Origin: Sphyrna mokarran
Lineage: Eukaryota
Length of the DNA stretch: 64,000 bases
NCBI GenBank assembly: GCA_024679065.1
Contig: JAGIQG010000011.1
Span: 44,950,001-45,014,000 of the forward strand
Reading direction: 5' to 3'
The stretch's first letter is position 1; every line of letters begins with the position of its first letter. This document shows positions 1,222 to 26,929 of this stretch, in pieces. Under the pieces are notes generated by a model. The model did not search any database. It was given only the letters and a program-made list of their open reading frames with translations, and was not told where the DNA came from. Position numbers and translations under genes: made by a program.

Positions 1222-3027
1222 ATGAAGGTGAGAAGGTGAGGAGGGTGTGAAAAAGGTGAAGAGTATAAGAATGAGGAGGGTAAGGGGGTGAATGAGGGTG
1301 GTGAAGGAATTAAAATGGATGAGAAGGGTGAGGATGAGGAGGAAGAAGATAAGTGAGGTGAGGAGTGTGAAGGGTGAGGAGTGTGAAGGTGAGGAGGATG
1401 AAGAGAGGGGTGAGGGTGAGAATAGTGGGGGACTAGGATCTGGGTGAGTTGGATGAAGAGCATGAAGAGGGTGAGGAGGGTAAGTGTGAGGAGAGTAGGT
1501 GTACAAGTGAGGAGGGTGAGGGTGCTGAGGGTAATGGTGTGTGTGAGAGAGGTTGAGAGCAAGGGTGAGAAAGTGAGGATGGAGAGGAAGAGGGTGAGGA
1601 TGTGTCAGGTTGTGAGGGTGAGGAAGGTGAGAGTGTGTAGGAAGAGGAAGGTGAGGAGGCTAAGGAAGGGGAGGTTGAAGATGAGGAAGGTTAGAGTGTG
1701 GATGGTGAGGGTGCAGAGGTTGAAGGTAAGGGTGTGGCAGGTGAGGAGGGTGAGGGTGAGGAGGGTGAGTATATGGATGGGTGTGAAGGTGAGGAGAGTG
1801 ATGGTGAGGAGGGAGAAGGTGAGGAGTGTGAGGGCTCGATGAGTATGTGAAAGTGAAGAGAGTGAGAGTGAAAAGGTGACAGTGAGGTGGCTGAGGGGAT
1901 GAAGATGAAGATAATGTGGGGGAGAGGATGGTTAAGGTGAAAAGGGTGAGTGTGAGGATAAGGATAAGGAGTGTGAGAGTGAGGAGGGTGAGGGTGAGGA
2001 GGGTGAGTGATCCTCAGCCATTTATATACTCTTTATACACCAATGACTGTGTGGCCAAATTCCCCTCCAACTCAATTTTCATGTTTGCTGACAACAACAC
2101 TATAGTGGGTCCGATCTCAAACAGCGATGAGATGTGGTACAGGAATGAGATAGAGAATCTGGTGAACTGGTGCAGCAACAATAATCTCTCCTCAATGTCA
2201 ACAAAATGAAAGAGATTGTCATTGAGTTCAGGAAGTTTAGTGAAGGACATACCCCTATTTACATCAACAGGGACAAAGTAGAAGGGGTCAGGAGCTTCAA
2301 GTTTTTAGGTGTCCAGATCACCAACAACCTGTCCTGGTCCCCCATGCCTACACTATAGTTAAGAAAGCCCAGCAATGCCTCTATTTTCTCAGAAGACTAA
2401 GAAAATTTGGCATGTCCGCCATGACTCGTGCCAACTTTTACAATTGCACCATAGGAAGCATTCTTTCTCATTGTATCACAGCTTGGTATGGCTCCTGCTC
2501 TGCCAATGACTGCAAGAAATTAGATAGGGTTGTGAACGAAGCCCAGTCCATCACGCAAACCAGCCTCCCATCCATTGACTCTGTCTACACTTCCCAGTAC
2601 CTTGGAAAAGCAGCCAGCATAATTAAGGACCCCACTCATCCCAGACATTCTCTCTTCCACCTTCTTCTGTCCAGAAAAAAATATAAAAGTTTGAAGACAT
2701 GTACCAAGAACAGCTTCTTCCCTGCTGCTGTCAGACTTTGAAATGAACTTACCTTGCATTAAGTTGATCTTTCTCTACACTCTAGCTATGACTGTATCAA
2801 TACATCCTGCATTCTCTCCTCTCCTTCTCTATAAACGGTATGCTTTGTATAGCGCAAGAAACAATACTTTTCACTGTATCCCAATACATGTGACTATAAT
2901 AAATCAAAGGAGGATGACGGTGAGGAAGATGACGAGGATGAGTATGAAGGGGCTGAGGGTGAGGATGAAGGTGGGGAGGGTAAGAATGAGGGTGAGGAGG
3001 ATGAGTGTGAGGAGGATGAGTGTGAGT
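1222..3027 (+). repeat. Purine-rich (GTGAGGAGG-like) low-complexity array upstream of Dlx2, split by a LINE insert at ~2010-2908
   Basis: Degenerate gtgagg/gaggagggtga/gatgagg units at 1222-2009 and 2909-3027, with almost no C on the + strand. Confidence 0.95.
2010..2908 (+). mobile_element. 5'-truncated Rex1/Babar-type LINE (RT C-terminus and 3' tail)
   Basis: Translates as YSLYTNDCVAKFPSNSIFMFADNNTIVG...EIENLVNWCSNNNLS and NFYNCTIGSILSHCITAWYGSC...KAASIIKDPTHP...NSFFPAAVRL. Ends in a TAATAAATCAAA tail. Confidence 0.85.
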
Positions 3028-3029
3028 TG

Positions 3030-3130
3030 TTCTCAGTCGCCCGGCTCCGCCTCTCCGCGCAATAGGGTATGCCGATTGGCTGTTACTTAGCAACCTGGCT
3101 TCAGGCTGCGGTGCGGGTGCTTTAATGCTG
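3030..3130 (+). promoter_or_regulatory. Dlx2 proximal promoter
   Basis: CpG-rich segment right after the array. Contains ATTGG (inverted CCAAT) 3075-3079, RFX X-box-like GTTACTTAGCAAC 3082-3094 and TTTAAT at 3121. The TSS itself cannot be seen. Confidence 0.55.
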
Positions 3131-3454
3131 AGTGTGGGAAGCTGCGGGAGAATTTACACAATCCAGGCAGCGCTGAGTGTGTCTCACACAGCTTCAGAGC
3201 ACTGAGACTGAGCCCGCACCGAGTGCACAGCCTTCAGTCTCACTGCACCGAGTGGGAGTCTCAGAGCCTCACTGAACAGAGTGCAGAGCATTGAGTCTCC
3301 CAAAGATTCACTGAGCACCAAGTCTCAGAGCACTGAGTCTCAACCAGCACGGAGAGAGTCTCATAGAGCTGCAGAGACTCCCGGAGTCTCCCAGAAATGT
3401 TCTTCAGAACAACGGTCACTTCTTTCTGAGCGGAGATTTGTGTTTTCTCTAACA

Positions 3455-3776
3455 ATGACCGGAGTGTTTGACAGCCTTGCTGCAGATATGCATTCCAACC
3501 AGATTACCTCCAGTTATCACCCCATGCACAAGTCACAGGAATCTCCAAACCTGCCAGTGTCCACTGCAACTGACAGCAGCTATTACAGCGGGCAGCAACA
3601 ACCGCAGCACGGCCCCTGCGCCGGCTCACCTTATGGACAGCTCAACTACCAGTTCCATGTCGGGAACATGAACAACCTTTCGTACAGTGCCAAATCCTAC
3701 GAAATTAGTTATTCCAATTGTTACAACTCCTACGGTTCCTACGCTTCGAGCAATTCGCCGGCAAACACTGATGTGG
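3455..3776 (+). CDS. DLX2: Distal-less homeobox 2, coding exon 1
   Basis: ATG at 3455; MTGVFDSLAADMHSNQIT...HKSQESPNLPVSTATDSSYY is the Dlx2 N-terminus. Phase-1 donor G|GTAAGT at 3777. Confidence 0.97.
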
Positions 3777-3785
3777 GTAAGTTAG

Positions 3786-4124
<339 letters not shown>

Positions 4125-4293
4125 TAGCGTCTCAAAGAACCAAGCAATTCTTTGAGCTCGATTAACTTAGTCCACTCGTTTAAGGAATACACTAAACTTT
4201 TGCAATGTAAGTGTTTCTAAACACTTTGTACATGTTTTCCTAACACATTTTCCTAACACAAATGTTTTCCAAACTTTTTTTTGCAAAATCTAG

Positions 4294-4593
4294 GTAAAAA
4301 TTTGGTTCCAGAATCGCCGGTCTAAATTTAAGAAAATGTGGAAAAATGGAGAAATGTCAAAGGAGCAGAATCTAAGCACCGATGAGTCTCCCCCGTGCAG
4401 CTCTCCTCTAGCCTGGGACTACTCTCCTCATCAGAGAATTAACAACAACTCCAGCCTCACACAGAACAACGGGCCGCCCGCGGCCTTCCTCGGGAACTAC
4501 TCCTGGTATCCTGGTTCAAACAGCGCTTCACAGATCCATTCAACCCCCATCCTTCAACATCAGCCCACTATTAACCCGGGAGCAATATACTGA
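4294..4593 (+). CDS. DLX2: Distal-less homeobox 2, exon 3
   Basis: Acceptor tAG ends at 4293. Encodes VKIWFQNRRSKFKKMWKNGE...SPPCSSP..WDY...AFLGNYSWY...GAIY; TGA at 4591-4593. Total 267 aa. Confidence 0.97.
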   Translation, partial: VKIWFQNRRSKFKKMWKNGEMSKEQNLSTDESPPCSSPLAWDYSPHQRINNNSSLTQNNGPPAAFLGNYSWYPGSNSASQIHSTPILQHQPTINPGAIY

Positions 4594-5150
4594 GCCCAGA
4601 GTACTTACTGCCACTGGTTAGAGACTGATAAAGCCTTCCTAAAACAAGGACAATTCAAGTGTTTGCAAACAAACATTGTTTTTTGAATAAACTGCAAGTA
4701 CCGTCCTTCATAATGTTTGTAATTACTGGTGCCTTTCAAATGACCTCATTTTCTGAAGGGACGGTGTGGTATTAAGGTGAACTGTAGACAGTTCAGTGCT
4801 CGATATTAAAGTTCGCTATGTTAGATGATCGTAAATAATCTGTAAATAATTGCATTCTTTCGTGCAGAACTACCTGAATACGAATGTGCATCTATTGGAT
4901 TATTTGTTGTGATATAAACCATGTTACTATTGTGTTACTTTTGTAGCGGCGCCAATGATGTCCTGAGTTCTGAGTTACTGTACCATTGATATGTATTCGT
5001 TGTTTCAACACTACATTTAAAGGTTTTTTTTTGAAATTGTGCTACTGATTTTTCCACAGACCATAGATTTGGAAAAATAACTATTTTTATTTATTCTATA
5101 AAAACGACTTCTTTACAGTGTTGCTTTTATGAAAAGAAATATATTATTTA

Positions 5151-5156
5151 AATAAA
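5151..5156 (+). other. Probable Dlx2 polyadenylation signal
   Basis: AATAAA ending an AU-rich ~560-nt 3' UTR, followed by T/GT-rich sequence. Confidence 0.55.
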
Positions 5157-8089
5157 TATTGTTTAACTGTTATTTCTATTGTTGCTAGTTTAATGACAAA
5201 CCTTTGGGCGAAGTAATTTTTATTAAAAAAGGAGAGAACGTTTCTTTTGATTTTAGTTGAGTGGTTTTATTTAAGCAAATCTCCCAGTAATGGTCCAAAG
5301 AATTGGAACGTTGTCTAAATGTCTACCAGCAGTAAGATGCCAGTTCGGGATGACACAAGTGCTGTAGTTTAATTGTGTGTTACTAACGTGCAGGCTAGAA
5401 TTCTTACAACAGAGTACTTGTTTTGCAGATTAAAGATCTGTACGAATTGCGGCGGCAATTCTTTCGTGCAGACAGACATCAGTCAACCGCATATTCTCTA
5501 CATTAGACCCTGCTCCTCCTGAGAGCTGGCGCCCGACAAATTTATCTCATAAATATTCCCTCTGACGTAACTGTTGGCGAAGCAGGTTGGAAGTGGAATA
5601 ATGAGTTGTTATCGAAATTCCCTCTAAGTGTGTTTTGTGAGTAGGTTATTCGGGAGAAGGTCGAGATGTCCAGTTTGGCCGCAGTGACTTGCGTTCTCAG
5701 CTGGGACACACAACACATTCTCACGCAGGACAATTGTGTCCAGAGGTACATCCCCACTGTAGTGGCACCCTGTTTTCACATTTCACTCCCAACTCTCCGC
5801 CGTCGGCGAAGCAATTTTTCCCAGTTCAAAGCAGGGTGAATAATTAATGTGCATAATAACCACTTGAAAGAATCTCAAAGAAGACTTAACATTGTCACTG
5901 AAACTAAATGGATGACAAAGTGCTGGAAAAAGATCGCCCCCCACCCCCCCTCCCAACCTTTGGATTTTAGTTAACAACAAGACAACTTTTCTTTTCCCGA
6001 GACTTGCATGTAGTTGATGATTAACAGAAGCCCAAGTCTCTGGCCTCAGGCGGAGAGTTTAACACTGGTTGTTAAAGGCACGCAAAGGGTATTGGCATGT
6101 GAGTTTCGAGGGGCTAGCTTGGCTCAGGAGTGAGTAGACAAACTGGAGACAGAGCTTCTCTCTGTAGATTTTTTTTATTAACCACGAGAGGCACAAATCG
6201 GCTGAAATGGCCCCGAGCAAACCACTTGTAAGCGCAGTTAACAGCGAAACCACAGAAACAGACCTCTCTGATCCTGTTGGAGTTTTGTTTACTGAAGAGC
6301 TTTGCCTTTGGGCCGGTGGGGGGTGGAGGCAGGGTTGATTCTTAATATTAAATTCTATCGGAATATCCATATAAAATGGGAGCTGCACACATTCCAGCAC
6401 GTGTTCCTGTTGTTGGTAGATAGAAACCCTCCCGATTCAATTAGTTTGACAGCACATTACCTGAGCTTCAGGGCAGCATAATGTGCAACAATGAAACAAT
6501 GTCTGTAATAAAAATTGGACACAAACGGATTTCACTGTTCCACACCCTAATGCGGCGAGCACCGTCAGCTGAACCTCGTGATCATGAAAACACAATCGTA
6601 TAGTTTGCAAAACATCTAGATATAAACGCGTCGTCTTTACATCAACATTAACCCGTCAGAACTCGCACAGAACCGGGCGCCTGTTTTTCGATGGTAGAAT
6701 ATTCGGGCTGTAAATGGTCGGTGTTAGATTATCTCCCGTTGCCGAATAGACACATTATTGACAAGGGGAACTACCCTCTGATACAAATCTGTGCATTTTC
6801 AATTTTTTCACAAAACAGCGGTTCTTTGTTAATAGAAACTGCAATAACAACTACAATCTGAAAAATGGTCTGATACACGGTCGAGTTATTTTTAAGGAAT
6901 ACACGGTAGCAGCAAATATAGTAGTTTCAGCTGATATGTTAGTAAACTTATTTAGACTGATCTCTTAATCGGGTCTAAAGTGCGGAAAAAATATAATTCT
7001 TACAACATTCCGTTCGATTGTCTAACCCTTTATTTTGTTCTTGTAATTGACCAGATAACACAGAAATAACCAAAGGATAGGATTCCCCGAATACTGTTTA
7101 CATTTCTTTAATATAATTTCCTGTTTGGTTTAATACATATGGGTGTAATCGAGACGTCTGTGTTTTATTTAGGAAACAGGGGGACCGTCTATGTTCGAAA
7201 TTGTAATCAATAGAATCAAAACAATGTGTTTGATTAGGAATCAATGATTTAAACTGGCAACGCTGAAATATTGTATGTGCTGGGGTGGATTATATTAGTT
7301 AACGTCGCAGTTTCTATTAAAAGGGGGCGAGTGCCGTCTTTTCTAACTAGCTTGTTCAGAAGCTCTGTAATAAAGCATTTAATAAACGTCGAAGGTCACC
7401 AGTTATTTTCCTCGTAAAATCTGATGCATTTTAAAAAGAATTGGGCAGCATAATGGAATATAGAAAAATTGTTAGGGAATGTGCCCTGTGGTCTGTGTAC
7501 ACACGGAGAGAAAAAAAAGTCCTTTGAAAATATTCGATTCGTCGTTAAAGCTGAACGAAACGTAAAAAATGATTTGCTAAATGACATAGTGATTAGGGCG
7601 TCGTGTATATTATTTAGATCTTATCGACACTGATAAGGTAAGGCATAACATGGCTCTAGAAAAATATCGACTGAAAGAATCATTTCTATTTTGTAAGATT
7701 GGCTCACTGATTGTGTTAAAGATCTGCGGGATTTCTAGCTCGACAGGGCGAGCAGAAGTACTAAAAGTCCAATCCTTTTCAGGAATAAGGCCGTACTTTG
7801 TCAGTTGATTGCTGCGTTACAAGATGTTCCCCTTTTCTTCCCCGGGGCTGTCACGTTGAGACTCTTACAAGAATACCCTGGGGATGGTATAACTAGGGAT
7901 ATCCGCACTGCCAGACAAGCCGACCCCTTTTTGATATCTGACACATCCATTCCTATCTATAGGTTGTGTGTGTGGGGTGGGAGGACGGTGGGGGGGGGAG
8001 GGGTGGTGTCTCCATTCTGACTGGGGAAAGAGATATATAATAAGAAGTTCAAATAGTTGCTAGATTGAGGCGCGCCCTCAGACAATCTT

Positions 8090-8760
8090 ATGTCATGTGG
8101 TAGAGTCACTTCCGGAATCCTGGGCAGTCAATTTGGACATTTTTTTAGAATTTCCTCTCTAAACTTCGCACTGAAACACAACTGTAATTTTAACCACATT
8201 CGCTCGAGTTTGAGCTTGCCGGCTNNNNNNNNNNNNNNNNNNNNNNNNNNNNNNNNNNNNNNNNNNNNNNNNNNNNNNNNNNNNNNNNNNNNNNNNNNNN
8301 NNNNNNNNNNNNNNNNNNNNNNNNNNNNNNNNNNNNNNNNNNNNNNNNNNNNNNNNNNNNNNNNNNNNNNNNNNNNNNNNNNNNNNNNNNNNNNNNNNNN
8401 NNNNNNNNNNNNNNNNNNNNNNNNNNNNNNNNNNNNAATAGCTTGAATTGCATGGTAAACCGGCTGTTCGACATTTTTTTTAAAAAATTGCTCATAATTT
8501 CGAAAGATTACCAAGTTGTGGAGAGCAGAATGTCATCAGCGTAATGAAGAGTAAACATTTATGCTAATAATCTGCAATTTTTTCATCAGCTATAAAGACA
8601 GAGGCTATAGCAGAAATGCAATCATATTCTGCAGCCGCGTCCTGATTCCCAGCCTTTTAGAGAGGAGCTTTAGTGGATCTACCGGCAGAAACACACACAT
8701 CAGATGTATTTTTCTCCCCCCCCTTATCTCAATAGCAAAACCTGACACCATGACTTAGTT
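8090..8760. promoter_or_regulatory. Probable I12a intergenic enhancer, interrupted by an assembly gap
   Basis: Lies between Dlx2 and I12b, is dense in homeodomain sites (AAAAAATTGCTCATAATT, TTTATGCTAATAATCTGCAATT) and is TE-free. Identity is inferred from position and partial recall. Confidence 0.55.
8225..8436. other. Assembly gap (212 N)
   Basis: Run of N. Confidence 1.
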
Positions 8761-9759
8761 TAAAAAAAGGCCGACCAGGTTGTCTGAAAGGAACAAGGTA
8801 AGGGGATCAACTACTTTCTCTATAGTCAGTATGTTTAAACAGCATTCAAATAATATGGGGTCCTTACAGTGAGCTATACAGTTCCAAATAGATGGGCTAA
8901 TGCAAAGAGGGAACAAATTCTTGCGTTAAACGCGGAACGGGAAACTAGGTGTGGCGACGGGTATATGATTAAACCATTTTTACGAAGGCATACACATCTG
9001 GAGATGTCGCTAACAGTCTCCTAAAGGATTGCAGTGACGGATTTATTTTAAATGTTTCTATTCACTAACCGACACTAATCAGAGATTCTGGGCTATCACT
9101 CAGCCCCATATTTTGCCGCAAATTCTGTCGGAGATTTGAATCTTACAAAACGTTTTCTTATCATTTAACTCATAGCCATGAACAATGAATGTTTTTGCTC
9201 GGCGGTTGCTGTATTTTACGATGTAACCACCTCCCCCGTGTTAGCACACAAGATGCTGCATATCTAATTATATTTTAAACATGTTTCTAGATACAATGCG
9301 AAAATGTGTACCTTGCTAGAAAAAAAACGAAAGTTGTTATTCATATGATATGTCCCTGTAGATTCTGCTGTTTGTTAATGATGTTTGTTATCAGAGAAGG
9401 CCGTATTGCTATACGTAGAATTTACTTCTTGGAATTTTCCGTAGGTCGCTAACGGATTTTCCCTCCAGGGACTGTTTGAGACTATCTTAAACACTCTAAC
9501 TACGGAGGAAAAAGTATTTTTTAAAAAGTAGGATGGAATGATTTCCATTTGTGGAAATAGTAAACACATGCCGACTTGTCGCATCGGGAACTTTAAAAAC
9601 ACAACCTTTACCTGCCTGGTTTTCCTTTGCAACAAAATTGACATCTGTGTAACTTTGGCCATTAGACGTTAAAGAAAGGTGGGCGAGAGATCAGTGTGCT
9701 AGAGCGAGAGAGAGCGCTCGTTGAGCATTTTCCTTTACTCTATCTTTTCATCGCGTCTT

Positions 9760-10112
9760 ACTAATTTTGAACAGTTCCCTATTGACAATTCTTCTCCATA
9801 CACCTGCAAGCAATTTGCAGACCTCATGACAAACGGAGTTCCGAATTTCAAAGATGGAAAGCACACCTATTTCAGTTTAGTGCTTCTTTCTCAATGCTAT
9901 TCAAATTTGGCTTTCACTGCAACCTCTTTTGTTAATGCAAAGATTCCCCGGGCGAAAAAAAATTGCTCATAATTACCCCAATGATACGAAACTACATTAG
10001 AATAAATAAACTCAAAATTACTGTAATTATAGTCCGTTTGATGGCCTCGGCTTGTAATCAAGTAGAGAATATAGCTCAATAATGCCGAGCCTCTTGCTTG
10101 CAGCTGTATGCG
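9760..10112 (-). promoter_or_regulatory. I12b forebrain (GABAergic lineage) enhancer orthologue
   Basis: The minus strand reproduces, in order, blocks recalled from mammalian I12b: CAGCTGCAA, TTGATTACAAGCCG, ATAATTACAGTAATTT, TTTATTTATTCTAATG, GGTAATTATGAGCAATTTTTT, GCATTAACAAAAGAG, TGAAAGCCAAATTTG, GCAAATTGCTTGCAGGTGTATGGAG, TTGTCAAT. Confidence 0.88.
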
Positions 10113-10459
10113 CGCTTGGGAGCTTTTGGCAGAATACATTCATTTGTTCTTCGCTAAGCCGCAAGCTTCATTTACAGAAAAAAGTTTTTCCTAAAACGCT
10201 ACGCACCTTCCTTTTCCCAATCTTAGTCCTCCCAAAAAGGTTATAACCGTTAAGCTTGAACACGAGATTTAACCGTCCGCCTTTTAGTCTATGGAACATT
10301 CTCAGCCCGAGATGCTGATCAATTCGTTTAAATTAAAACGTCTTAGCACTTGTGTGTAATAACCGGCGCCGCTTCAATCCATTTACAATGTATTCGACAA
10401 TTTTTCTTAGAATGAATGAATTATATATAAACATTGTATATTCCATTACAATGGAATAT

Positions 10460-10555
10460 ACTTTCCCTTTCCCACAGATGCTGTCAGCCCTGCTGAGATT
10501 TTCCAGCATTTTCTGTTTTTGTTTCCCATTCCAGCATCTGCAGAATATTGCACGC
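10460..10555 (+). mobile_element. Short interspersed shark repeat (CACAGATGCTG...CTGCTGAG...CCAGCATTTTCTG family, possibly Penelope-associated)
   Basis: Related copies occur at ~50-175 (+), ~50755-50820 (+) and ~63277-63355 (-). Confidence 0.7.
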
Positions 10556-12230
10556 TGCGTGTTTATTTCCGCATTTGTTTTTGTATGCAATGCCATTACT
10601 TCGTTATATTTCAGTAGAACCTGGGCATTATATTAAGCTTTGTTGTGATTTGTGCAGTGTACAAATCCGTACACAGACAATATGCACACACCATGCATAC
10701 ATACAAATGGAGGTAGCTATATGTCTGGAATGAAGGAGTATAGGAGATTAACGGGCATATGGGCGGATTGAATGGTATCTCTACAGACACCAGTTTTGGT
10801 AATATTGGCATCTTCTCTACTTCTCCCAAGATGTTGATGGTGAAGGCGCACACATTGCTGAAAAAGCGCAGTTAGCCCATCATCCCCGAACAACAGCTTC
10901 TTTGAAGTTCCCAGTTTGTTGCTTGTAGAAATGACACAGCTTTCAACTCCTCTGAACAAACCGCAGGGGGTTTTTTTCGGCAGCACCTGCTTCTCCAGTC
11001 AATTATTTAGTTAACACAGGAGTGGCTTCCTGTCATTCAAGGCTGAAAAAGAGATGCATTGTACGCCAAGAAATATATAAAAGAGCGAATAAGAGCGATA
11101 GACGCGTCTGAAAAGCAAAAGTGCTTTAATTGCTGCAAAAATAATTGCACCCAATTGAGGATAGCACAGGTTAGACGTGACACTGAAAGTAACGTTTGAC
11201 TGTAACAAAATAATCCGATCCCACATCGTGAACGGCCGGGGTGGTCAGAAACAAAGCGAAATTATATTATTTAGAATAATATTAGCTTACGATTCCTGCT
11301 TTTAGGTTATCCGGCAGTTAAATCGCTAACGAAACAACAGGAGGAAAATAATTTTAAGACAATTCCCTGAGTCATTGTGCATTTAAATATAAAAATATGT
11401 CGGGGAAGTTAATTCGCGTTTCCAACTGGCCAACGCTCACAGACGGAGGATGTTATTTGATCGCTTCTCCTGGTTGATTGCATTGTGTAAAGTGGAGAAG
11501 AAGGAATTATTGAAAGCAGTGGGATAATAGTGAATGTATTATGTCAGGAATTCTTTACAGTTCTGTGTTAATGAATGAGAACACAGAGGCTTTCATATTG
11601 CAACTGTCGTTCAAAATCATAATTTTACTGTCTTTGAATGGACTTTATAATATATTTACAAAGATTCAAAGATACAAAGCAATAAGTTAACATTATCAAT
11701 ATAAAACTAAACCTTTACATTTAGAACGCTAAACACTGTTTTTTTCAGCAACACGTTTCAATTTCACAGGTAAATATTAAGATCCCATTTCACAATGTAT
11801 CATGTACACTCCACACAATACCAAAAAAACGCTAAATCTGTGCAACATATTTAAATAATGATATGTACAAAGAACGGTGACTGCGTGCAGTAAGAACTTC
11901 CCACTGTCGTGAATTCTGCGCTGCATAGCCAGTCATTCGTTTACAGACCTAAAATCCTAAAAGGGGAGACGGTACTCGATACAAAGCCTATTTCAGAATA
12001 GGGATCTGCAACAAAGGCTTGTTAACTGTCCCAGGGATTATGCCTCAAAGTCCTGGTGCTGGAGGTCTGCTCTGAATGTGGAGCCGATAGATACTGAGCC
12101 GAGCTGTCAGCTGGCAGGATTGGGAAGTCGCTCCGCATCACATCTGTGCGTGTCTGCTAAGGGCATGGTGCACTTCAGAAATTGCTTTCTTGGTTATTGT
12201 CCTTGCTCGAACAGGGCGAGTGCGGCTGTC

Positions 12231-12482
12231 TTACATCAGTTGGGGCTGCTGCATAGATTCCTGGTGCGCTGGAGGATACCACGATGTGTAGCTGGGAATG
12301 TAGTTTCCTGGGGTCCCTGTGGAGTTCTTGCCGGCAGATGAGGTGTTCCAGACGGGTGGAACCGGAGGGGAGGATCCGGTTAGGCCCCTGCCGTTAGCAA
12401 GAGCGCTGTTCTCTAATGCACCGTTCCCCTGTTTCATCAGCTTCTTAAACTTAGAGCGTTTGTTCTGGAACCAAATCTTTAC
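12231..12482 (-). CDS. DLX1: Distal-less homeobox 1, exon 3
   Basis: Acceptor aaacAG at 12484-12483. Encodes VKIWFQNKRSKFKKLMKQGNGALE...GSSPPVPPVWN...YIPSYTSWYPPAHQESMQQPQLM; TAA at 12233-12231. Confidence 0.97.
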   Translation of the reverse strand, partial: VKIWFQNKRSKFKKLMKQGNGALENSALANGRGLTGSSPPVPPVWNTSSAGKNSTGTPGNYIPSYTSWYPPAHQESMQQPQLM

Positions 12483-13105
12483 CTGTTTAATATAACAAAC
12501 ATCTTTTGTTAAAAAAAACCAAGATTTTTAGTTGTCTTATATAGATATAAACATTTACCAAACCAGAATTTAAATGCGAAAACTACCAAGCGTGTGAAAA
12601 GTCCGGTTACCCTAAATAATTCCAAAATATTAGCACAAAAACTTGCTTCGAATCAAGCAGCCAATGCAGCCACAAGAAGTGAACTTTCCTAAACACCTCA
12701 GCCCACAGATGAGAACTATAATGTTATCATCTGAACAACATGACGCGTTTCTTAGAGTGACTTGTTGAAATTATTTCTCAAATAGTTGGCCCAGACTCTA
12801 AGACATTCCAGAACACCCTGCATTCTCTATCAATGGGCAGATTGGTGAAGCGGCTATGTGAATAGTCTCCATGTATGTTCCATTTTATGGATTTGAGTTG
12901 CATTTTATTACAGTGTTTCAAACTTTCACTGATGTACACAAATACTTGGATTTGTATCTGGGGAGAGCACACTTGTGTCATTTTAGCTTAACCTTCTCCT
13001 CAACTCTGCATCGGGGTTTATGCCTGGCTCTGCTGGGCGGTGTGATTTATTCGATGTGAGGTCGGGCCCAAGAGCTTTGTATTTTCAGTTTAATATCTCC
13101 GTTAC

Positions 13106-13305
13106 CTGTGTCTGTGTCAAGCCCAGGGAAGCAGCGAGCTCGGCTCTTTCAGGCAGGGCCAGGTATTGGGTTTGTTGGAACCGTCTGTTCAAAGCCTGCA
13201 GCTGGAGACTAGAATAAATGGTTCGGGGTTTGCGGATTTTTTTCCCTTTCCCATTAAACCTGACTTCCCCACTCTCCACCACAGTACCTTTATCTGATTC
13301 TGCTC
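13106..13305 (-). CDS. DLX1: Distal-less homeobox 1, exon 2
   Basis: Acceptor ttctttctcttgcAG. Encodes [67 protein letters not shown]. Donor GTAACG; 310+200 nt keeps frame. Confidence 0.98.
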
Positions 13306-13617
13306 CTGCAAGAGAAAGAAATTGACATAGCAATGCACATCCAAATACATAATTACCTACAACAGAACAACAACGCATTTAGCACAGCAGTTAAAAGTTT
13401 GTCTATTTTTACTAGCGACGGTTTACGTATAATTACCCATAATTGCATGCATTGTTTATAGTATTACGCAACAAATAATTACAAAGATCCGAGACTGAAT
13501 GATGCGAATTTGTGTGTTACAAATTTCCTCCCTGGGCTGCTTCAAATGCTGCTCTCCTGCCTCTCACCTATTTCACAGCAATTAGATTTAGCGATTGGGC
13601 GCTGCTGCCGCGCTTAC

Positions 13618-13927
13618 CTGTGTCCTCTAACCGCGTATGGACCAGACTGGAGTTGTTTTGGTACGATTGCACTGAGCTGATGTAAGGGTTAGTGGAGTGG
13701 TTATTCACTGAGTTGACATAGGGGTAGCCCAGAGACCGGGAGAAGGAAGAAGCGGTGTTGTACGAGCTGTCATGTTGAGAGTGGCCGGCAGAGTGTAAAC
13801 AGTGCATGGAGTAATGTCCGTGAGACATGGGAGGCGACATTTGTTGAGTTGGTGGGCCAAACTCCATAAAGACCGCTTTACTGGAGACCGGGCTGCCGAC
13901 GCTCTCTGACATCGCAGTCATGGTCAT
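13618..13927 (-). CDS. DLX1: Distal-less homeobox 1, coding exon 1
   Basis: MTMTAMSESVGSPVSSKAVFMEFGPP...MSHGHYSMHCLHSAGHSQ is the Dlx1 N-terminus. Donor G|GTAAGC at 13617. Total 253 aa. Confidence 0.97.
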
Positions 13928-14069
13928 CGTTCGCCTCCCAGCTTGTCACTTCACTTCTTTTCCTGCCACTACTCCCTCCGGCCGAGCAGGATCCCAATTT
14001 AAGCGAATCTTTTTTTTCACTCTCCATTCATAAGAAAATGGAGTTTTGGGGTTGACAAAGTGGAGGCGA

Positions 14070-14220
14070 AGCTGTGAATAAAACAAGCAGCCCTCCCAGC
14101 TCAGCCCGGCTCCTCATGAATATTCATCACTGCCAAGCGCTCATTGGCCCGCCCCGCCAGCTGCCCCTCTCATTGGCTGCACGCAGCTTCGCTCCGGCAC
14201 AGTGGCGTCGGGGCTGGAAA
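14070..14220 (-). promoter_or_regulatory. Dlx1 proximal promoter
   Basis: Two CCAAT boxes on the minus strand (14143-14147, 14172-14176), GC boxes 14148-14158, E-box CAGCTG 14158-14163 and palindrome ATGAATATTCAT 14116-14127. Confidence 0.65.
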
Positions 14221-17200
14221 CTCTCCCTCAGTCGTTCAGTCCCTCCAAAGTCCCTCAATCCCGCCAAACTCCCTCCAAACTCCCTGAATCCCGCCAAACT
14301 CCCTCACTCCCTCCAAACTGCCTCCAAACTCCCTCGATCCCGCCAAACTCCCTCACTCCCTCCAAACTGCCTCCAAAGTCCCTGAATCCCGCCAAACTCC
14401 CTCACTCCCTCCAAACTTCCTCCAAACTCCCTCACTCCCTCCAAACTTCATCCAAACTCCCTCACTCCCTCCAAACTCCACCAAACTCCCTCAATCCACT
14501 CCAAACTCCCTCAATCCCCCCAAAGTCCTTTAATCCCCTCCAAACTTCCTCAAACCCATCCAACTCTCTCCCGAACTCCCTCAATTTCCTCCAAACTCCC
14601 CAATCCCTCAACCCCCTCCAAACTCCCTCAATCCCGCCAAACTCCCTCACTCCCTCCAAACTCCCTCCAAAGTCCCTCAATCCCGCCAAACTCCCTCACT
14701 CCCTCCAAACTTCCTCCAAACTCCCTCACTCCCTCCAAACTCCACCAAACTCCCTCAATCCCTCCAAACGCCCTCAATCCCCTCCAAACTCTCTCAATCC
14801 CCTCCAAACTCCCTCACTCCCTCCAAACTCCCACCAAACTCCCTCAATCCCTCCAAACGCCCTCAATCCCCTCCAAACTCTCTCAATCCCCCCAAAGTCC
14901 TTTAATCCCCTCCAAACTTCCTCAAACCCGTCCAAACTCTCTCCCAAACTCCCTCAATTTCCTCCAAACTCCCCAATCCCTCAACCCCCTCCAAACTCAC
15001 TTAATCTGCTCCAAACCCCCTCCAACCTCCCTCCAAACTTTCTCAATTCCCCTCCAAACTCCCTCAATCACTTCCAAACTATCTCAATTCCCTCCAATCC
15101 CCTCCAAACTCCCTGAATCTTTCAATCCCCTCCAAACTCCCTCAATCCCTCAATCCTCTCTAAACTCCCTCAATTCCCCTCCAAACTCCCTCAGTATCTC
15201 CCATAATCCCTCCAAATTCCCTCAATCTCTTCCTATACTCCCTCCAAACTCCCTCCCTCTCCAAACTCTCTCCAACCTCTCTCCAACCTCCCCCAGTTCC
15301 CACCAAACTCCCTGAAATCCCATTGAAATTCCCTCAATTCCCATCCAAACTCTCTCACTGCCCTCCAAATTCTCTCCTTCAATCCCTTCCTATAGCCCAT
15401 TAATCCCTTCCTGTAGTCCTTGCAAACGCCCTCAAATCCCCTCCAAACTCCCTCAAAACTCTCTCAATCCCCTCCAAACTCCCTCAATCTCCTTCAAGCT
15501 CCCTCAATCCCCACAAAACTCCCTCCAAACTCTTTCAAACCCTCAATCCACTCTGAACTCCCTCAAACCCCTCCAAACTTCTTCCAAACTCCCTCAACCT
15601 CTTGCTATAGTCCCTCCAAACTCCCTCAAATCCCCTCCAAACTCCCTCAATCCCCTCCAAACACCCTCAATTCCTCTCCAAACTCCCTCAATTCTATCAA
15701 TTCCCACTCAGAACTTCCTCAATCCCCTCCAAATACCTCAATTCCCCCAAAATCCCTCAATTTCTCCACACTTCCTCCAAACTCTCCCAATCCTTTCAAA
15801 TTCCCTCAATTCCTCCAAACTCCCTCAATCTATCCAGACTCCCACAATTCTCCCTCAATTCCACCAAACTCCCTCAATTCTCTACCTAACTCGCTCAATC
15901 CCTCCAAACACCCTCAATTCACCTCCAAATTCCACTCAAAGTCCCTTAATCCCCTCTTATAGTGCCTATGGACTCCCTCAATCCTCCAACTCCTTCAGAA
16001 CGCCCTTAATTCCCTTCCAAACCCGCTACATGCCCTCCACTTTCCCTCATTCCTCCCTGCACTCTCTCAAACTCCTTCAATCCTCCTTCTACTCCCTCAA
16101 AACTATCTCAATCCCTCCAAACTCCCTCAAAACAACTCAATCCCTCAAACATTCCTTAAAACAACCTCAATTCCTCCACTCTCCCTGAATTCCCCCAATC
16201 TTGTCCAATCTCCCTCAATTCCCCTCCAAAGTCCCTCAATCTTCTCTCCATTCCCTTAAAACTCTCTCAATTCCCTTGCAAACTCTGAACACTCCCACAA
16301 AACTCCCTCAATCCCTCAAGATTCCCTCAAATGTCCTCCAAACTACCTCAATCATCCCTACACTCCTTCAGAATACCCTCAATTCCCCTCCAAACCCCCT
16401 ACATGCCCTCCAAACCCCCTCAATGCCCTCCTATAGTCCCTCAAAACCCCTCAATTCCTCCACTCCCTCCACTCTCCCTCACTTCTCCCTACACTCACTC
16501 AAAACTCCATCAATCTTCCTTCTACTTCCTCAAAACTACCTCAATCCCGCCAAACTCTCTCAAAACAAGCTCAATCTTTCAAACCTTCCTCAAAACAACC
16601 TCAATTCCTCCAACCCCCCTCAAGACTACCTCAATTCCTCCAATCTCCCCCAAAACTACCCTCAATCCCCTCCTATAGTCCCTCCAAACTTCCTACATTA
16701 CTTCAAAACTCCCTAATTCCTCCAAACTCCTTCAATCCTCCTTACACTAATCAAAACTCCCTCAATCCTCCAAACGCCCTCCACTCTCCAAATTCCCTCT
16801 ACTCTCCCTCAATCCTCCCTCCACTACCTCAATAATTCCCTCCATTTTCTCCAAACTCCTTCCACTCCCTCCAAATTCCCTCCACCTCCCTCAATCCTCC
16901 TTACACTCCCTCAAAACTCACTCCACTCCTTCCAAGCTCCCTTCACTTTACTGCTACTCCCTCCAAACAGCCTCCATTCTCCCTCAATCCTCCCTACATT
17001 ATCTCAGAACTCCCTCAGTCTCTCAATTTCCCTTCCACATTCTCACAATTCCCCTAAACTCCCTCAAAACTCCCTAAAGTCCACCAAACCCCTTCAATTT
17101 CCCCTACTCTTCCTCCAAATTTCCTCCACAGCCTCAAATCTCCCTCCACTTCTCCTATAATCCCTCCAAACTCCCTCCACTCTCCCTCAATCCCCCTCCA

Positions 17201-18571
17201 TGCTCTCCCAATTCCCTTCCAAACTCCTTAAGTCCCTCCAAATTCCCCCTAAATCCCTCCAAACTCTTTTCTCACTCTCTCCAAACTCCCTCAATTCCTT
17301 CTATAATTTCTCCATGCTCTCTCCAAAACCCTCAATTACTCCCACCATTATCTCCAAACTCCCTGAATCCTCCTATAGTCCCTTCAAACTCCCTCCACTT
17401 CCTCAATCATCCTCCAATCCCTTCAAACTCCCCCAATTCTCCCAGACTTCTTCCAAGTTCTCTTAATCCTCCTCCACTCTCCCTCAATCTTCCAAATTCC
17501 CTTCACTCCCTCCAATCTTCCTCAATTCTCCCACACTCCCCCAAATCCCTCTATTCCCTCCAAACTCCCTCCACACTCCCTCAACCCTCCTCCACTCTCT
17601 CCACTCTCTTCAATCCTCCAAACTCCCTTCACTCTCCCTAAATTCTCCAATCCCACCAAACTCTCTTAATCCTCCTATAGTTCCTTCAGACTTCCTCCAA
17701 ATTTGCTCTACTCTCCCTCAATCCTCCTTGAAACTCCCTCCACTCTCCCTCAATCCTCCTCCAATCCCTCCAGAAAGTCTTTCTGAATCCTCCTCTACTC
17801 CTTCCACTGTCCCTCCACATTCCCTCAAACTTCCTTCAACTCTTCCATGCCACACACTCTCTCAACTCTCTCTTAACTCCCCAATACTCACTCCCCACTC
17901 CCTTAGCTCCCTCCACATCTCCTATACTGCCTCAACACTCCCCCAACAGTCCCTCAACTCTCCTATACTCCCTCCACATGCCCTCAATTCCCTCAACACT
18001 CCATCCACTTCTCCTATACTCCCTCTAAACTCCCTCAACTCTCCCCTTAACTCCCCCATACTCCCTCCACAGTTCCTCACCTCACTCCACACTCCCTCAA
18101 CCCTCTCAACACACTCTCCACTTCTCCTGTACTCACTCAACACTCTTTACATTCTCCTATACTCCCTCCACATCCTTCAATTCCTTCAACACTCCCACCA
18201 TTTCTTCTATATTCCCTTCACATTTCATCAACTCTCATCTCAACTCCTTCCACTCCTCTTATGCTCCCTCCACACTCACTTAGCTCCTCCTATATTCCCT
18301 CCACACTCCCTCAACTCCCTCCACTCTCCTAAAATCCTCCTACGCTCCCCCAATTCCATCCACATCTCCTCCTAGATGCCCTCAGCTCTCCCACAATTCC
18401 TCTGAAACTCCTTCCATTCCCCCTCAACTCGTTTTATACTCCCTCCCTGCTCCATCAACACTACCTCAACTCCTACACTCCCTCAACTCCCTCCAAGACT
18501 CTTCCTAAATTCTCCCTCCACTCCCTTCTCACTCCCTCAATTCCCCATATTCAATCCATACTCCTTCAATG

Positions 18572-18730
18572 CCCCCTACACTCCATCCACACACCCTTAC
18601 CTCCCCTACACTCCATCCACACTCCCTTACCTCCCCTACACTCCATCCACACACCCTTACCTCCCCTACACTTCATCCACACACCCTTACCTCCCCTACA
18701 CTCCATCCACACTCCCTTAACTCCTCCAAA
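18572..18730. repeat. 30-bp minisatellite, about 5 copies, inside the array
   Basis: Unit CTCCCCTACACTCCATCCACACACCCTTAC repeats at 30-bp period with 0-2 mismatches. Confidence 0.9.
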
Positions 18731-18771
18731 CTCCATCTAAACTCCTTCAACTCTCCCTATGTTCTATGAAC

Positions 18772-19072
18772 AGCACAGTGGCACAATGGGTGGCACAGTG
18801 GTTAGCAGTGCTTACTCACAGTGCCAGGGACCTGGGTTTGATTCCTGGCTTGGGTTACTGTGTGGAGTTTGCACATTTTCCCTGTGTCTCCTGGTAATCT
18901 GGTTTCCTTCCATAGTCCAAAGATATTTGGGTTAGGTGAATTGGCCATGCTAAAATGCTCCTTAGTGTCAGGGGGAATTAGCAGGGTAAATACATGGGGT
19001 TATGGGGAAGGGCTTGGGTGGGATTGTAGTCAGTACAGACGCGATGTGCCAAATGGCCTCCTTCTGCACTGC
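18772..19072 (+). mobile_element. HE1-like V-SINE
   Basis: tRNA-like head GGCACAGTGGTTAGCA...GGGTTTGATTCC, V-domain TGTGTGGAGTTTGCAC...GGTTTCC...AGTCCAAAGA, and CR1-type tail CCAAATGGCCTCCTTCTGCACTG. Confidence 0.85.
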
Positions 19073-22000
19073 CAATTCAATTCCATCTACACTCTCTTAA
19101 CTTTCCCTACACTCCATCTACGCTTCCTCAACTCCTCCACACTCTATTAATGCCACCTTCATTTCATCTACATCCCTCTACTTCCCCACACTCCCTCAAC
19201 TTCCCCTGCACTCACCCACACTTAACTCACCTACACTCCACTTGCACTCACTCAACTCCCCTAAACTCCATCTACACTCCCTCAACTCCCCCTACACTCC
19301 AATCACACTCCCTCAACTCCCCCTACACTCCAATCACACTCCCTCAACTCCCCCTACACTCCCTCCACACTCCCTCAACTCCCCCTAAATTCCAATCACA
19401 CTCCCTCAACTCCCTCTATGCTCCGTCTACACTTCTTCAATTCCCCTACAGTCCACCACACTGTCTCAACTGCCCCACATTCCCTCAACTTTCCCCTTGC
19501 TCCCTCAACTTCCCCTGCATTCCACCTACACTCACTTCCCCCTACATTCCACCTGTACTCATTCAACTCCCCTGCACTCCCTCAACCCCACCTACACTCC
19601 ATTTACACTGTCTGAATTCTCCTTTCTGTCTACATTCACTCAACTCCCCCTACACTCCCTCCACACTCCCTCAACTCCCCCACACTCCCTCAACTCCCCT
19701 ATACTGCCTCAGCTCCTTTACACTCAATCTACACTCACTCAACATCCTCCACACTCCCTCAGCAATTCCTCAACTGCCTCAATGCCCTCCATACTTCCTC
19801 TGCATTCCCTCCATACTTAACTGCCTCAACTCCTCTTAAACTCTCTCTATGTTCCCTCTAGTCCTCTACACTTCCTCCACTCCCTCAACTGCCACTACAC
19901 TCTATCTACACACGATCCACACTCCCCTACACTCCCTCCATTCCCTCAACTCCTCTACACTCCAACTGCCTCAACTTCCTCCACATTCCATCAACAATCC
20001 CTCAACTCCCTCCATGGTCTCCCTAGATTTCCTCCATACTCCCTACTCCCACTCCACACATTTACACTCCCCTACACTGATTAACTACTTCAGTTCCCTA
20101 CGCTCCTTCTATACTTCCTCAATCCTCAACACTCCATTTACATTGCCTCCATGTTTACACTCCCCTCACATCCTTACACTTCCTCAACTCCCCTACACTT
20201 CCTCCACATTCCCTCCACTCCATCTACACTCAACTCCCCCTACACTCCAATGTTCCCTTAACAACCATACACTCCATCTACATTCCCTCAACCTCCCTTA
20301 TACTCCATCTACACCCACTCAACTCCCTTTACACTCCATCCACTCAACTTCCCCTACACTCTCAACTCCTCCACACTCCATCCACACTCTCTCAACTCCC
20401 CCTACACTCCCCCAATGCTTCTATACTTTCTCTATCCTCCCCCATGCTCTGTTCGCACTCCCTAACTTCTCCTATATTCCCTCAACTCCCCTATACTCCC
20501 TCTACACTCACTCAACATTCACTCCTCTCCCTCAACTCCTCTACACTTCCTACACTCTCAACTCCTCCTACACTCCCTCTAAGCTCCTTCACAGCCTCAA
20601 CTCCTCAGCATTCCCTCAACTCTCCCTCCACTGCCTCAATTCCTCCACACTCCCTCTATGTTCCTTCAACCCCTCCACACTCCTTCTACATTCCCCCAAT
20701 CCCTCCACACTCCCTCTACACTTTCTGAACTCCTTCACACTCCCTTTACAGTCCCTCAACTCCTCCACACACCCTTCACTGCCTCAACACCACCCCCCGC
20801 AAAAAATCCCTTCACAGCAAAGGCTCTGGCTCACATTCTAATCAGACTATTGCAAAGCCTTTCTTTGCAACATTATAACGTCGGGCTTTTATGACCTGAA
20901 CTGAGACATTTTGTGATCAGTTTAGAATGACTCATACCTGCCACACACGATTGCGCCTAACTAGTTTTGTAAGTATCCACAGCTGTTGCCAAAAATGTGA
21001 TGGTTTTAATGTCATGATCCTACAGTGTTGGTAGATGCTGTAAGATATTATTTTTTTAATTTTCCGCCTCAAGGATACACTTCTTTATTGCATTAAAGAT
21101 CTGACACAGAAGTAACTTATTGCATTAACTTCACCATCTTACTAGCAACCACTTCAGAGAGTAACTTGTTGATTTCATAATGTTGGAGATGAGTTTGGGG
21201 GTAGAAATAGAGGTAGTGAATGATAATGTATCGAATGAGAAATTAACGGAGCTTGGTCGTAATGTAAACATGTTGCAGATGGCACAAGAATCTGATGTAG
21301 AAAGAAACTGGAACCAATCTGATATTTTTAATGACCTATATTGAAATAAACTCCAGGAGAAACATTTCCGGAGGCTTTCCTTTGCTCAAAACTGAATTAG
21401 AACGGAGGGGGAGGAGGGAATAATACAATGGATAATAAGATAACGGTAAAGCTAGCAAACGGCCCAACTGTTACAACTGCGTTACTGTACCATCATTATA
21501 AGGACTAATATAAACATGCAATTTACAAAAAAAATCAAAGCATGTGAGCTACAATATAGAAAAGTTTGTTTGAACGCTGTACTCACTTAAAAGGTATTTA
21601 CTGTAGTTATTAACAAGATATCGCTTGTGAGGCAGCGAAACTGCATCTAACACTGAAGTGAAACGGTGAAAGAGCACGCGTGCATATGCAGCAGTTAGTG
21701 ATTCATTTGATTAAATGCCAGTCTCAAGAGCTCTGATAAACAGCTGAAGGCGCCTCCTATTAGCATAACTCTGATACTTAATTTTCATACGCATAATTAG
21801 CCATATATTTAACACCAATTGCAACATCCAATCCTTTCATCGTTAAACAAGTGAGCCTAAACCATAGCAGAGAGATGCCTGTATGCGGGGCACCAGATTA
21901 AAAATATCATGCAGCATATCGGTAATGTACAGAGGTTTTCGAATGCCACATGCGACCCGAGAATGATATGAAATATCTAGAAAAGCATACTTCAATGTGG

Positions 22001-25000
22001 GAGATTAATTGCACTGTTTTGTTTGAAGGGTGAATAAAAGGTACTTAAAATGCATTTTCGGGTTTAAATACTTCACATACAGCGATAAACGGTGTAATTT
22101 GAATCCTGATGAGACGCTGGCGGCCAGTAAGTGTAAGGCATGGCTGATGTAATACAAATGCATACATCTGGAATAAAGAGTATTAAAAGCTTAAGTGATT
22201 TTTAACGCTCAGATATTTTTCAATGATAAAATGTCGATTTTTAACATGCGTCGAACACTTCCGAAGTTCTGGGCATTTATTTTTCCACAAGCCATTCTCC
22301 TCGATTTCCCTTCTTTCCGTTGGGAGAATCGGATTATGTTTTGGGTTTTCACTTAGTTTAGACAGTAGCTGATTACACTCTCTGTTTATATGTAATCTAA
22401 CGGTAGTCATTCCATAATATTTAACTTAACAACGCCGATCCACGAAACGATAACAAAAGGTATTTAACTTCTCAAGGTATATACAATTAATAACATAAAA
22501 CAAGCGAGGAGCGAATTCTTAAGAATTGCTGCAAGACAGAATTCCCAATAAAAATATGCTTTCACCAAGTCAGCAAATAACCCGATTACACTTATATTTC
22601 TGCAACGCAAGCTGAGATGTATGCACATCCGCAATTATCGATGAGGCATTTTGGTTCTGTAATCATAATTGGAAATCATAACTGAAAGCCCTCTTTATAA
22701 AAGTGCAGAGTTCGGAAGAAATGCATGTTTGCATCTGATTAATTAAAGTAAAATCTTTTAGCATTTTGTTAAGAAAGTCGTGGAGAGAAATGATACAACT
22801 TCTCAGTAACCCTCAAGTCATTGCCTTGCTGTTGTATTACTGTTTCAAAAGGTTCTGCGAATTCAGATTTTTTTTACTGTCCCGCTGTTATTAAATTTTC
22901 CCCACAGGATCAGCAAGTAAAAACTCTTTCTCGTACCAACCCATTGCTTCACCTAACGTCACCACTGCAGTAAAACAACTGAAGAATTGACCGTGAAAAT
23001 TTATATGTCAGCTACAGAATAATGCCCGGTCCTGAATGAAATATTTAATTACAATCAACTGTTTAGGTCTATTCTGTCTTTTGAGTAAGTCTGTCCTTGG
23101 CCAAGCCAATTAAGCACTAAAATTGCGGCTCCACAAATTGATATGCATATTTATTCATGTGTTAGGTTCATAAAAATATTTGTACTGCAGGCATGTTCAA
23201 CATCTATCGCTGCCAATGAAGCTTATTAGTGTGTGTTTTGTTTACAGAAACGAGCGACGTGCAAAAGATAACCATTTAGGAGTCCACAGGCCAAAAAAAT
23301 CATATTTCCAAACTTACGATTCAACTGCAGAAGCATCATATTTTTATGAGCTTTGAACACTTTCTAAGCTTAACAGGAAGTCTAGTTAAACCACGTGTAA
23401 TATTCAATTAAAACATTTCATTTCAAATATATTCGATTCAACAAATGGTTCAGCAATGTTACATTAAACTACTTATCTTAATATTATTTAAGATATAGCA
23501 AATTACTCAATTTTAGAAGCATATTGTATATTTAATTGAATTACAACTCTTACAACTATTTACTTCGAACAAAAAGGACGGAGGGGGAAACAGATCAAGT
23601 GATCTCGATAATAGCTGGAATCTGATTGCATTTCTCTGAGTGAAGAATTCGGTACAAATATACTTTCCGAGTTGTGTCGCGGAGACCTGTCTGTGAATCC
23701 ATCGGCAGTTAAAATAGAAAGATTTCAGCACCTGTTTCGGGTGAAACTTATACCAGGAACAGTTCAGTTGTCGATTTGGTTCAATTCCTCTAATATTTAA
23801 AATGAACAGAGACGTTTTTATCTGAAGATCTTGTAAACAGGCAGAATTAATCTGCCCTGAAATTCACTCGGGGCTAACGTGACAATCTTACTTAATTCTT
23901 CCGACGTGTGTGTGATTGTGTCCAGATGCCACACGAATTCCATCAGCACCGAGACCTATTTCCCCAAGTTTTTTAAAATCTACAGCGCAACAAATCCATG
24001 TATTCGAATATGTATTGATCCATCATCGTCGTTTTGGGTTTCTCGTTCCATGTGAAAACTGACCGATTCAAGTCTGACCACAATTGTTTGCAAAGTCACT
24101 TGTAAAACGAGGGCTGTTAATCACAGTGCTGCTTTAATAACATCAAAAGTACATTCAAAACAGGATCCGCGTGTAATATTTTAACTTGTTTGCATAAGCA
24201 CATGCGTTCCAAAGAAAACTGCCAGTCCAACTTTGGGAATAAATACATTTCTTATAAAACTATAATAACACAACACCACGTTACGTATGATCTTTATCAG
24301 TCAGCGTATTTAAAAACACCTACACGTAAGCTATGACTATCCTCAAGTGCGTTACCATAATTAATGAGTTAATTACATGCACAATTAAAGTGACAAATCT
24401 CGTTTCTGCATTTCTGTGCTTTTACGACATTCAACCCACTCATAAAAAGGTTTCATATTAAGAACCAAGGTCCGGTAAGAACCAGGGTCCAGTAGGAAAG
24501 ATGAAAACATTCTTTGGTTTGATCAACGTGATGTGTTTCTTCGATAAATAAAAACTGACGGCAATCAGAATTGAAAACAAAATGGTGTAAACTTTCAACA
24601 ATTTTAACCCGTGAGAGAGAACATGTAAACAAATTGAGACCCTGTATATATGAGGGAACCCAGCCAAATAATTCTAGGTAATCGATTATTATTTTCTTGC
24701 TGGATCTGGTTACAGTTCTATCTGTCTTTTCGCCCTTTCCAGTTTAATGCTGGAAGTTTCACACTTAAATTTCTTCATACGAAAACTTTCCCTCTTGCAG
24801 TGATCATTTATTTTACTTAGTCTTACTGTAGATAATACTGTCTTTTTCAGCTTTGTTTGGCAACTTATTTTCAGTACGTAGGATTCTACAAAATTAAACG
24901 CGCAATACGCATACGGTGTGGTGCATTAGGTTTTACATACATGCCCTTTACAGGTTTACAATATGTTCCGAGAGGACAGACTGGGGTTACAATAGGCTAA

Positions 25001-26656: not shown

Positions 26657-26662
26657 TTTATT
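26657..26662 (-). other. Candidate METAP1D polyadenylation signal
   Basis: AATAAA on the minus strand ~34 nt after the stop; another lies at 26135-26140. Confidence 0.4.
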
Positions 26663-26695
26663 GCGGTGTCTGCAGCGAGTCCCCTATTTTTCTGT

Positions 26696-26780
26696 TTACC
26701 CTTGATCTTCCTCCGGCAACTTGGTTAGGATTTCTGCTCCTTTCGATGTAATTGCAATAGTATGTTCGAATTGCGCGGAT
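26696..26780 (-). CDS. METAP1D: Methionine aminopeptidase 1D, last coding exon
   Basis: Acceptor ttttcttttcAG. Encodes (R)SAQFEHTIAITSKGAEILTKLPEEDQG then TAA at 26698-26696; carries the MetAP SAQFEHT motif. Confidence 0.95.
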
Positions 26781-26929
26781 CTGAAAAGAAAACCATTTAA
26801 TTTATAAAAATGCACCACTTGAGGAATACTGCAGCAAATATATTGAGAAGACGATTAATAGTAGGAAATATTGGTAGGATAAAACATAATTCGTAAAGAT
26901 AAAACAAACTATAAAGTAATTATCAGCAC

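Follow-up and report, generated by a model that had tools for sequence, protein, structure and literature searches.

Degenerate G-rich arrays beside the Dlx1 and Dlx2 promoters of Sphyrna mokarran as ordinary members of a promoter-edge repeat class

In the shark Sphyrna mokarran, the convergent homeobox genes Dlx1 and Dlx2 each have a degenerate G-rich tandem array abutting the core promoter, referred to here as array A (at Dlx2) and array B (at Dlx1). Both lie in a window of 64,000 nucleotides that covers 44.95-45.01 Mb of the 95-Mb contig JAGIQG010000011.1 (assembly GCA_024679065.1; genome size 2.77 Gb, flanking GC content about 37%). The original prediction, made from the sequence of this window, was that the arrays bracket the cluster as mirror images and reflect either a strand-specific expansion coupled to promoters or a structural boundary or regulatory element. 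The locus therefore raises the question of whether the pairing says something about Dlx genes or about repeats at shark promoters in general. The arrays are real, but they are an ordinary case of a promoter-edge repeat class, and their significance lies in the genome-wide class and in a hint of polarity, not in the symmetry at Dlx. The literature searched, which took in few subscription journals and no supplements, yielded no account of such arrays at the Dlx genes or promoters of sharks.

The proposed link to promoters is supported. Promoters in this study are recognized from motifs and CpG content, not from mapped start sites, and the principal set was picked by a YY1-type motif regardless of arrays: the motif gave 65 matches, the reversed motif none, and the matches fall in 58 loci, 55 of them with an island core, with some matches possibly being minisatellite copies instead of promoters. 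Arrays with a dinucleotide-repeat content of 0.15 or more, or lying 300 bp or less from a locus edge, were set aside, with L165 restored by hand. Of the 58 YY1-motif loci, 12 have a skewed array 200 bp or longer within 1 kb, compared with 8 of 200 2-kb windows (P=1.7e-4) or 3 of 40 central windows (P=0.09) from 40 matched random loci. Counted by length, YY1-motif promoters have 13 arrays in 116 kb and matched random DNA has 6 in 400 kb, a ratio of 7.5 (P=2.5e-5); the ratio is 5.6 (P=3e-4) with 20 loci of a GC-box/CCAAT set pooled in. Arrays A and B belong to a class enriched beside CpG-island promoters genome-wide. At the junctions examined, arrays begin either directly at a splice donor of a first exon or a short way upstream of a core promoter. 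Array B is matched or exceeded in length at L165 (at least 8.0 kb, in intron 1 and G-rich on the sense strand) and L173 (6.8 kb).

In a RING-finger gene near 50.80 Mb, in the middle of a contig, the L165 array extends from the first splice donor. Two unplaced contigs of 21.6 and 11.0 kb (L162 and L168) consist largely of GTGAGG-type arrays, which suggests that such arrays break assembly.

Specificity for developmental or Polycomb-type promoters, as originally proposed, was not borne out, as none of 20 homeobox upstream stretches carries an abutting array. These comprise the four genes of the Dlx3/4 and Dlx5/6 clusters, whose upstream 20 kb or so are free of skewed arrays, and 16 other homeobox loci, of which 10 kb each was examined and none has an array abutting the promoter, although for about four of the 16 (L015, L016, L018, and L019) the promoter may fall outside that stretch. 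At another of these loci (L020), a 560-bp GTGAGG-type array is found just before the homeobox exon.

Composition and coordinates confirm that both arrays exist where they were predicted, and translations place Dlx2 on the forward and Dlx1 on the reverse strand, so that the genes are convergent as claimed. The closeness to the promoters also stands: array A ends 48 bp before the ATTGG at 3075, and array B starts 45 bp past the distal CCAAT box at 14172-14176. The description of the arrays as purine-rich holds for the G-rich skew but not for purine purity. Array A has 50-52% G, 1.8-2.5% C, and 80% purines on the forward strand, while array B (14221-20800) has 47-48% G, 2.4-2.9% C, and 73-75% purines on the reverse strand; because 17-24% of the bases on the G strand are T and no purine run in either array exceeds 14 nucleotides (median 5), the arrays are C-depleted, not homopurine, and C depletion is the defining trait. 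Symmetric bracketing is likewise correct for the mirrored orientation but not for length, with about 0.9 kb of array A and about 6.3 kb of array B, a difference of about 7-fold. Since array A is cut by a 901-bp insert that we take to be a LINE (long interspersed nuclear element) fragment, only 119 bp of it adjoin the Dlx2 promoter. Short head-to-tail units are present (Tandem Repeats Finder periods 11-49, matches 59-93%), and the array caller found no arrays in the 64-kb window besides A and B, with an N run at 8225-8436 excluded. At 50050-50350 there is a short degenerate 24-29-bp repeat with weak C skew and without a CpG island nearby.

Independent origin of the two arrays, which the prediction deduced from their different units, is supported: k-mers of 8-14 are common to A and B no more than when A is shuffled, and BLAST gives no match. 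The motifs of array B point to a local origin. When exact 16-mers from the window were used, 14 of 30 genome-wide matches of the proximal motif were within the window, as were 9 of 16 matches of the distal one, and a composed 24-base consensus of array B had no match genome-wide. The motif of array A is a commoner type, with 3 of 59 matches within the window. A dispersed satellite or mobile family was considered and rejected, since the matches outside the window (16 of 30 and 7 of 16) almost always occur singly, in arrays dominated by other units. At two other loci, L024 (5250-5700) and L036 (4700-5050), the array unit contains the CCAAT word of the adjoining promoter (TGATTGG), which points directly to promoter sequence as the origin. 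The L024 junction also has what is presumably an E2F-like site.

Array B is layered, with CCAAACT units near the promoter followed distally by CTACACT and CTCAACT units. Recurring 16-mers amount to 0.66-0.85 over the first 600 bp and 0.04-0.29 in most later bins, and recurring 14-mers to 0.67 in the first sixth as opposed to 0.15-0.32 in the remaining five sixths. CpG content as well as homogeneity peaks at the promoter end; a second homogeneous patch surrounds an insert presumed to be a SINE (short interspersed nuclear element). A CpG-bearing unit variant, CCGCCAAA, is found at 14252-14680, with six copies less than 500 bp from the start of array B and one further out.

The Dlx1 junction was compared over 401 bases in 4 of 20 sequencing runs. 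One contig of public run X1 spans the junction with 1 difference, while in three other organisms (X2, X7, and X9) the Dlx1 promoter is 90-99% alike and is followed by the array at the same start point, with the first array units altered. As X1 is perhaps the source sample, independent support counts X2, X7, and X9 only, and support at the level of reads covers the Dlx1 junction, not the Dlx2 junction or the full array lengths. The differences between organisms at the array start hint that the CCGCCAAA variant may be lineage-specific. Both arrays predate old insertions, because the best copies of the LINE and SINE inserts among the loci compared are only about 82% and 79% identical. No clear target-site duplication was seen for either insert, only 8-mers that double as array units.

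The strand-specific rule proposed for the arrays, with purines on the sense strand of the gene, is not supported near YY1 promoters, where, within 1 kb, the sense (motif) strand is the G-rich one in 7 arrays and the C-rich one in 6. The G strand runs toward the YY1 motif in 5 of these arrays and away from it in 8, and relative to the island 4 are inward and 9 outward. The original prediction had named common arrays of mixed orientation as evidence against it, and this is largely what was found: across all sets, the island is at the 3' end of the G strand (inward) in 13 arrays and at the 5' end (outward) in 11, the latter including L165, which runs off the locus edge (P=0.84). A rule that all arrays aim the G strand at the island was rejected when it failed on the array-independent YY1 set, and G-run content was rejected as a key to orientation (inward and outward arrays not separated, P=0.40). 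If anything, any surviving polarity is relative to the island and not to the sense strand. Skewed arrays flank small CpG islands on both sides at L036, L100, L103, and L040, the second L040 array being an AT-rich 33-mer. Both members of the pair are inward at L100 and L036 and outward at L103; the chance that two arrays both face inward is about 1 in 4.

Arrays A and B are unrelated degenerate G-rich and C-poor tandem arrays that were probably amplified locally, each at its own promoter edge, and are probably nearly neutral, the mirror symmetry being most likely a chance pairing. Slippage or non-crossover gene conversion would have amplified, in place, a short skewed seed lying in the open margin of an unmethylated promoter island. 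Selection to preserve the core promoter would halt growth about 45-50 bp short of the CCAAT box, and strand polarity would be passed on from the seed. In the Dlx1 array, recent units may have been added at the promoter end; such growth fits array B, with its proximal homogeneity and its altered first units in related organisms. Enrichment, local units, mixed polarity, and unit turnover are direct results, and near-neutrality and the molecular driver of amplification are what we infer from them.

Several observations weigh against this account. Among 56 loci found through Dlx-like motifs, 9 of 11 island-adjacent arrays are inward (P=0.065), or 7 of 8 after weak island calls are removed (L174 twice and L057), and this set differs from the YY1 set, with 4 of 13 inward (Fisher P=0.019). 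The Dlx1 array is kept in four organisms, which neutrality permits but does not predict, although divergence among them is small. Homogeneity is greater at the promoter end in 10 of 18 other island-adjacent arrays and not in 8 (P=0.21). None of the 20 GC-box/CCAAT loci (11 with an island core), taken from 57 matches for their near-intact boxes, has an array within 1 kb, so the array rate varies by promoter type. In that set, L184 and L191, and likewise L186 and L187, have near-identical CpG profiles that suggest duplicated loci or a multicopy unit, and the set therefore holds fewer than 20 independent loci. Upstream arrays are uncommon, with 5 among 78 promoter loci, so the average rate does not explain one at both promoters of the same cluster, which was picked post hoc. 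The two upstream arrays in the Dlx1/2 cluster may reflect some local factor.

Part of this evidence would be accommodated by an oriented expansion, in which arrays with short G runs (GTGAGG or TTGGAGGGAG type) point the G strand to the island on either side, divergent transcription or forks from an island origin favour the polarity, and units are added at the island end. The inward arrays found by motif occur upstream (L024 and L028) as well as in intron 1, where the sense strand is the C-rich one (L039, L040, and L056), homogeneity and CpG in array B are greatest at the promoter end, and the largest proximal-distal differences elsewhere (L103, L115, L117, and L165) share one direction. Such an expansion is nonetheless unlikely, as the unbiased YY1 set leans the other way and G-run content does not distinguish the orientations; general growth from the island end was rejected, the gradient over 18 arrays not being significant. 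GTGAG resembles a splice donor, and selection alone could strip sense-strand copies of it from intron 1. An assembly or long-read artefact is barely credible, since the X1 contig crosses the Dlx1 junction, three other organisms share the array start, both arrays hold old diverged insertions, and the motifs of array B are layered; homopolymer-length noise in some arrays at other loci, and a Dlx2 junction without independent read support, are what speak for it.

That the arrays are selected boundary or regulatory elements bracketing Dlx1/2 through G-quadruplex (G4), R-loop, or triplex structures is quite improbable, although both stop 45-48 bp from a CCAAT box. On the left, a CpG-rich domain ends at array A (CpG observed/expected 0.16 outside and 0.74 inside the domain), and the next 20 kb outward are CpG-poor. 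The edge position holds for array A only: CpG observed/expected is high on both sides of array B (0.74 on the gene side and 0.80 at 20801-27500), so array B is an insertion into the domain and the proposed boundary role fails for it. Array B has 4 short-loop and 27 long-loop predicted G4 patterns on the reverse strand and is kept in four organisms, but array A has only one long-loop pattern and no short-loop pattern, and G4Hunter-type window scores and fractions are below those of shuffles of the same composition. Triplex potential, also raised, was not supported, there being no long homopurine mirror repeat and only short purine runs. Antisense RNA transcribed upstream of either gene would be C-rich and a poor R-loop former, which is the wrong strand for this proposal. 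In addition, array A has accommodated 0.9 kb of inserted DNA only 119 bp away from the promoter end, and the other Dlx clusters lack arrays. A narrower role, with array B as a G-rich pause or terminator element that shields the Dlx1 promoter from read-through of the METAP1D-like neighbour, is highly improbable. That gene is on the G-rich strand of array B with its stop about 5.9 kb before the array, and read-through RNA over the array would, from the sequence, be G-rich; however, no counterpart is known on the upstream side of array A in the flank examined, where genes are unannotated, and the genome-wide class of arrays is left unexplained.

Features of the Dlx1/2 window of Sphyrna mokarran (positions within the 64,000-nucleotide window)
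Feature	Position	Strand	Remarks
Array A, distal part	1222..2007	+	degenerate GTGAGG/GAGGAGG repeats, G-rich, C-poor
Presumed LINE-type fragment within array A, 901 bp	2008..2908		132 matches in 71 sequences compared; best copies ~80-82% identical
Array A, promoter-proximal 119 bp	2909..3027	+	G-rich, C-poor
Dlx2 core promoter and 5' leader	3028..3454	+	CCAAT box (ATTGG) 3075-3079
Dlx2 coding exons	3455-3776, 3901-4082, 4294-4593	+	ATG 3455; open three-exon translation
Dlx1 coding region	12140..13927, low end approximate	-	ATG 13927; exon 1 translated, ends 13618; homeobox exon includes 13106-13267
Dlx1 5' leader and core promoter	13928..14220	-	CCAAT boxes 14143-14147 and 14172-14176; sequences of related organisms 95-99% alike
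Array B, proximal part	14221..18760	-	GTTTGGAGGGAG/ATTGAGGGAG units, most homogeneous 14221-15100; motif drifts outward
Presumed SINE within array B	~18761..19075		best copies compared at most 79% identical
Array B, distal part	19076..20800	-	GTGTAG/GTTGAGGGAGTG units
CpG-rich domain, resuming past array B	20801..27500		CpG observed/expected 0.80
METAP1D-like neighbour, last exons	26690..38800, ends approximate	-	stop near 26700; transcription toward array B; gene extends past window

We take the two homeobox genes to be Dlx1 and Dlx2 from their N-terminal motifs and from synteny with the methionine-aminopeptidase gene. Such a gene is the neighbour reported for Dlx1/2 in the available text of a published account (PMC2891724). 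Conserved upstream elements of Dlx1 probably lie in the CpG-rich DNA that separates array B from the end of the METAP1D-like gene, although URE2 was not located, and array B has moved this DNA 6.6 kb further from the Dlx1 promoter.

The Dlx1/2 locus indicates that kilobase arrays can grow less than 50 bp from a homeobox core promoter that is conserved, with no obvious harm, and the proportion of sampled YY1-type shark promoters with such an array, about one in five, is useful for the annotation of shark genomes. A bolder reading, offered tentatively and with considerable doubt, is that sharks have a promoter-anchored form of the sequence stuttering described in birds. Skewed arrays would be born at island edges and grow from the island end, pushing older copies and distal enhancers outward, and arrays of the Dlx type would face the island with the G strand on either side. 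Dlx1/2 would then be a two-sided example within a cluster of deep conservation, with 6.6 kb added between the Dlx1 promoter and the upstream conserved domain. If polarity and island-end growth were true genome-wide, repeat birth would be tied to promoter chromatin, replication origins, or recombination; the setting would be a slowly evolving vertebrate, and the pattern could be tested in existing assemblies.

The human insulin-linked minisatellite is a G-rich variable number tandem repeat just upstream of a promoter, with a homogeneous unit that can form G4 and a measured effect on expression. The shark arrays are similarly G-rich and upstream, but their units are degenerate and they are known from sequence alone. 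In the human genome, tandem repeats turn GC-rich near start sites, chiefly at CpG-island promoters, but in the text available these are short and within about 250 bp of the start (PMC3840602), while the shark arrays are 0.2-8 kb long, degenerate, and nearly without C on one strand. Shark genomes carry appreciable simple tandem repeats, as stated in a report that covers chromosome size and ends and whose main text, as available, never mentions promoters (PMC10620051). The G-rich tandem repeats of GC-rich avian genes appear from the accessible account to affect whole genes (PMC6792250), whereas the shark arrays are confined to island edges. Avian sequence stuttering, which affects introns of dot chromosomes, was found by its authors in no other vertebrates except gerbils, according to the portion of the paper available (PMC12954441), and sharks would be a possible third lineage with stuttering-like instability. 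No copies of the adjacent exon edge were seen by eye inside the Dlx arrays, with no systematic screen. The shark arrays are not members of the avian phenomenon as defined, because they do not lie on a GC-rich, dot-like chromosome; stuttering also entails extensive length variation within a species. Their position is 45 Mb into a 95-Mb contig, in DNA of about 37% GC and at edges of promoters and first exons. What they share with stuttering, as far as the available description goes (PMC12954441), is local clustering of imperfect short direct repeats against conserved gene parts, a GC-rich composition, and differences between close relatives.

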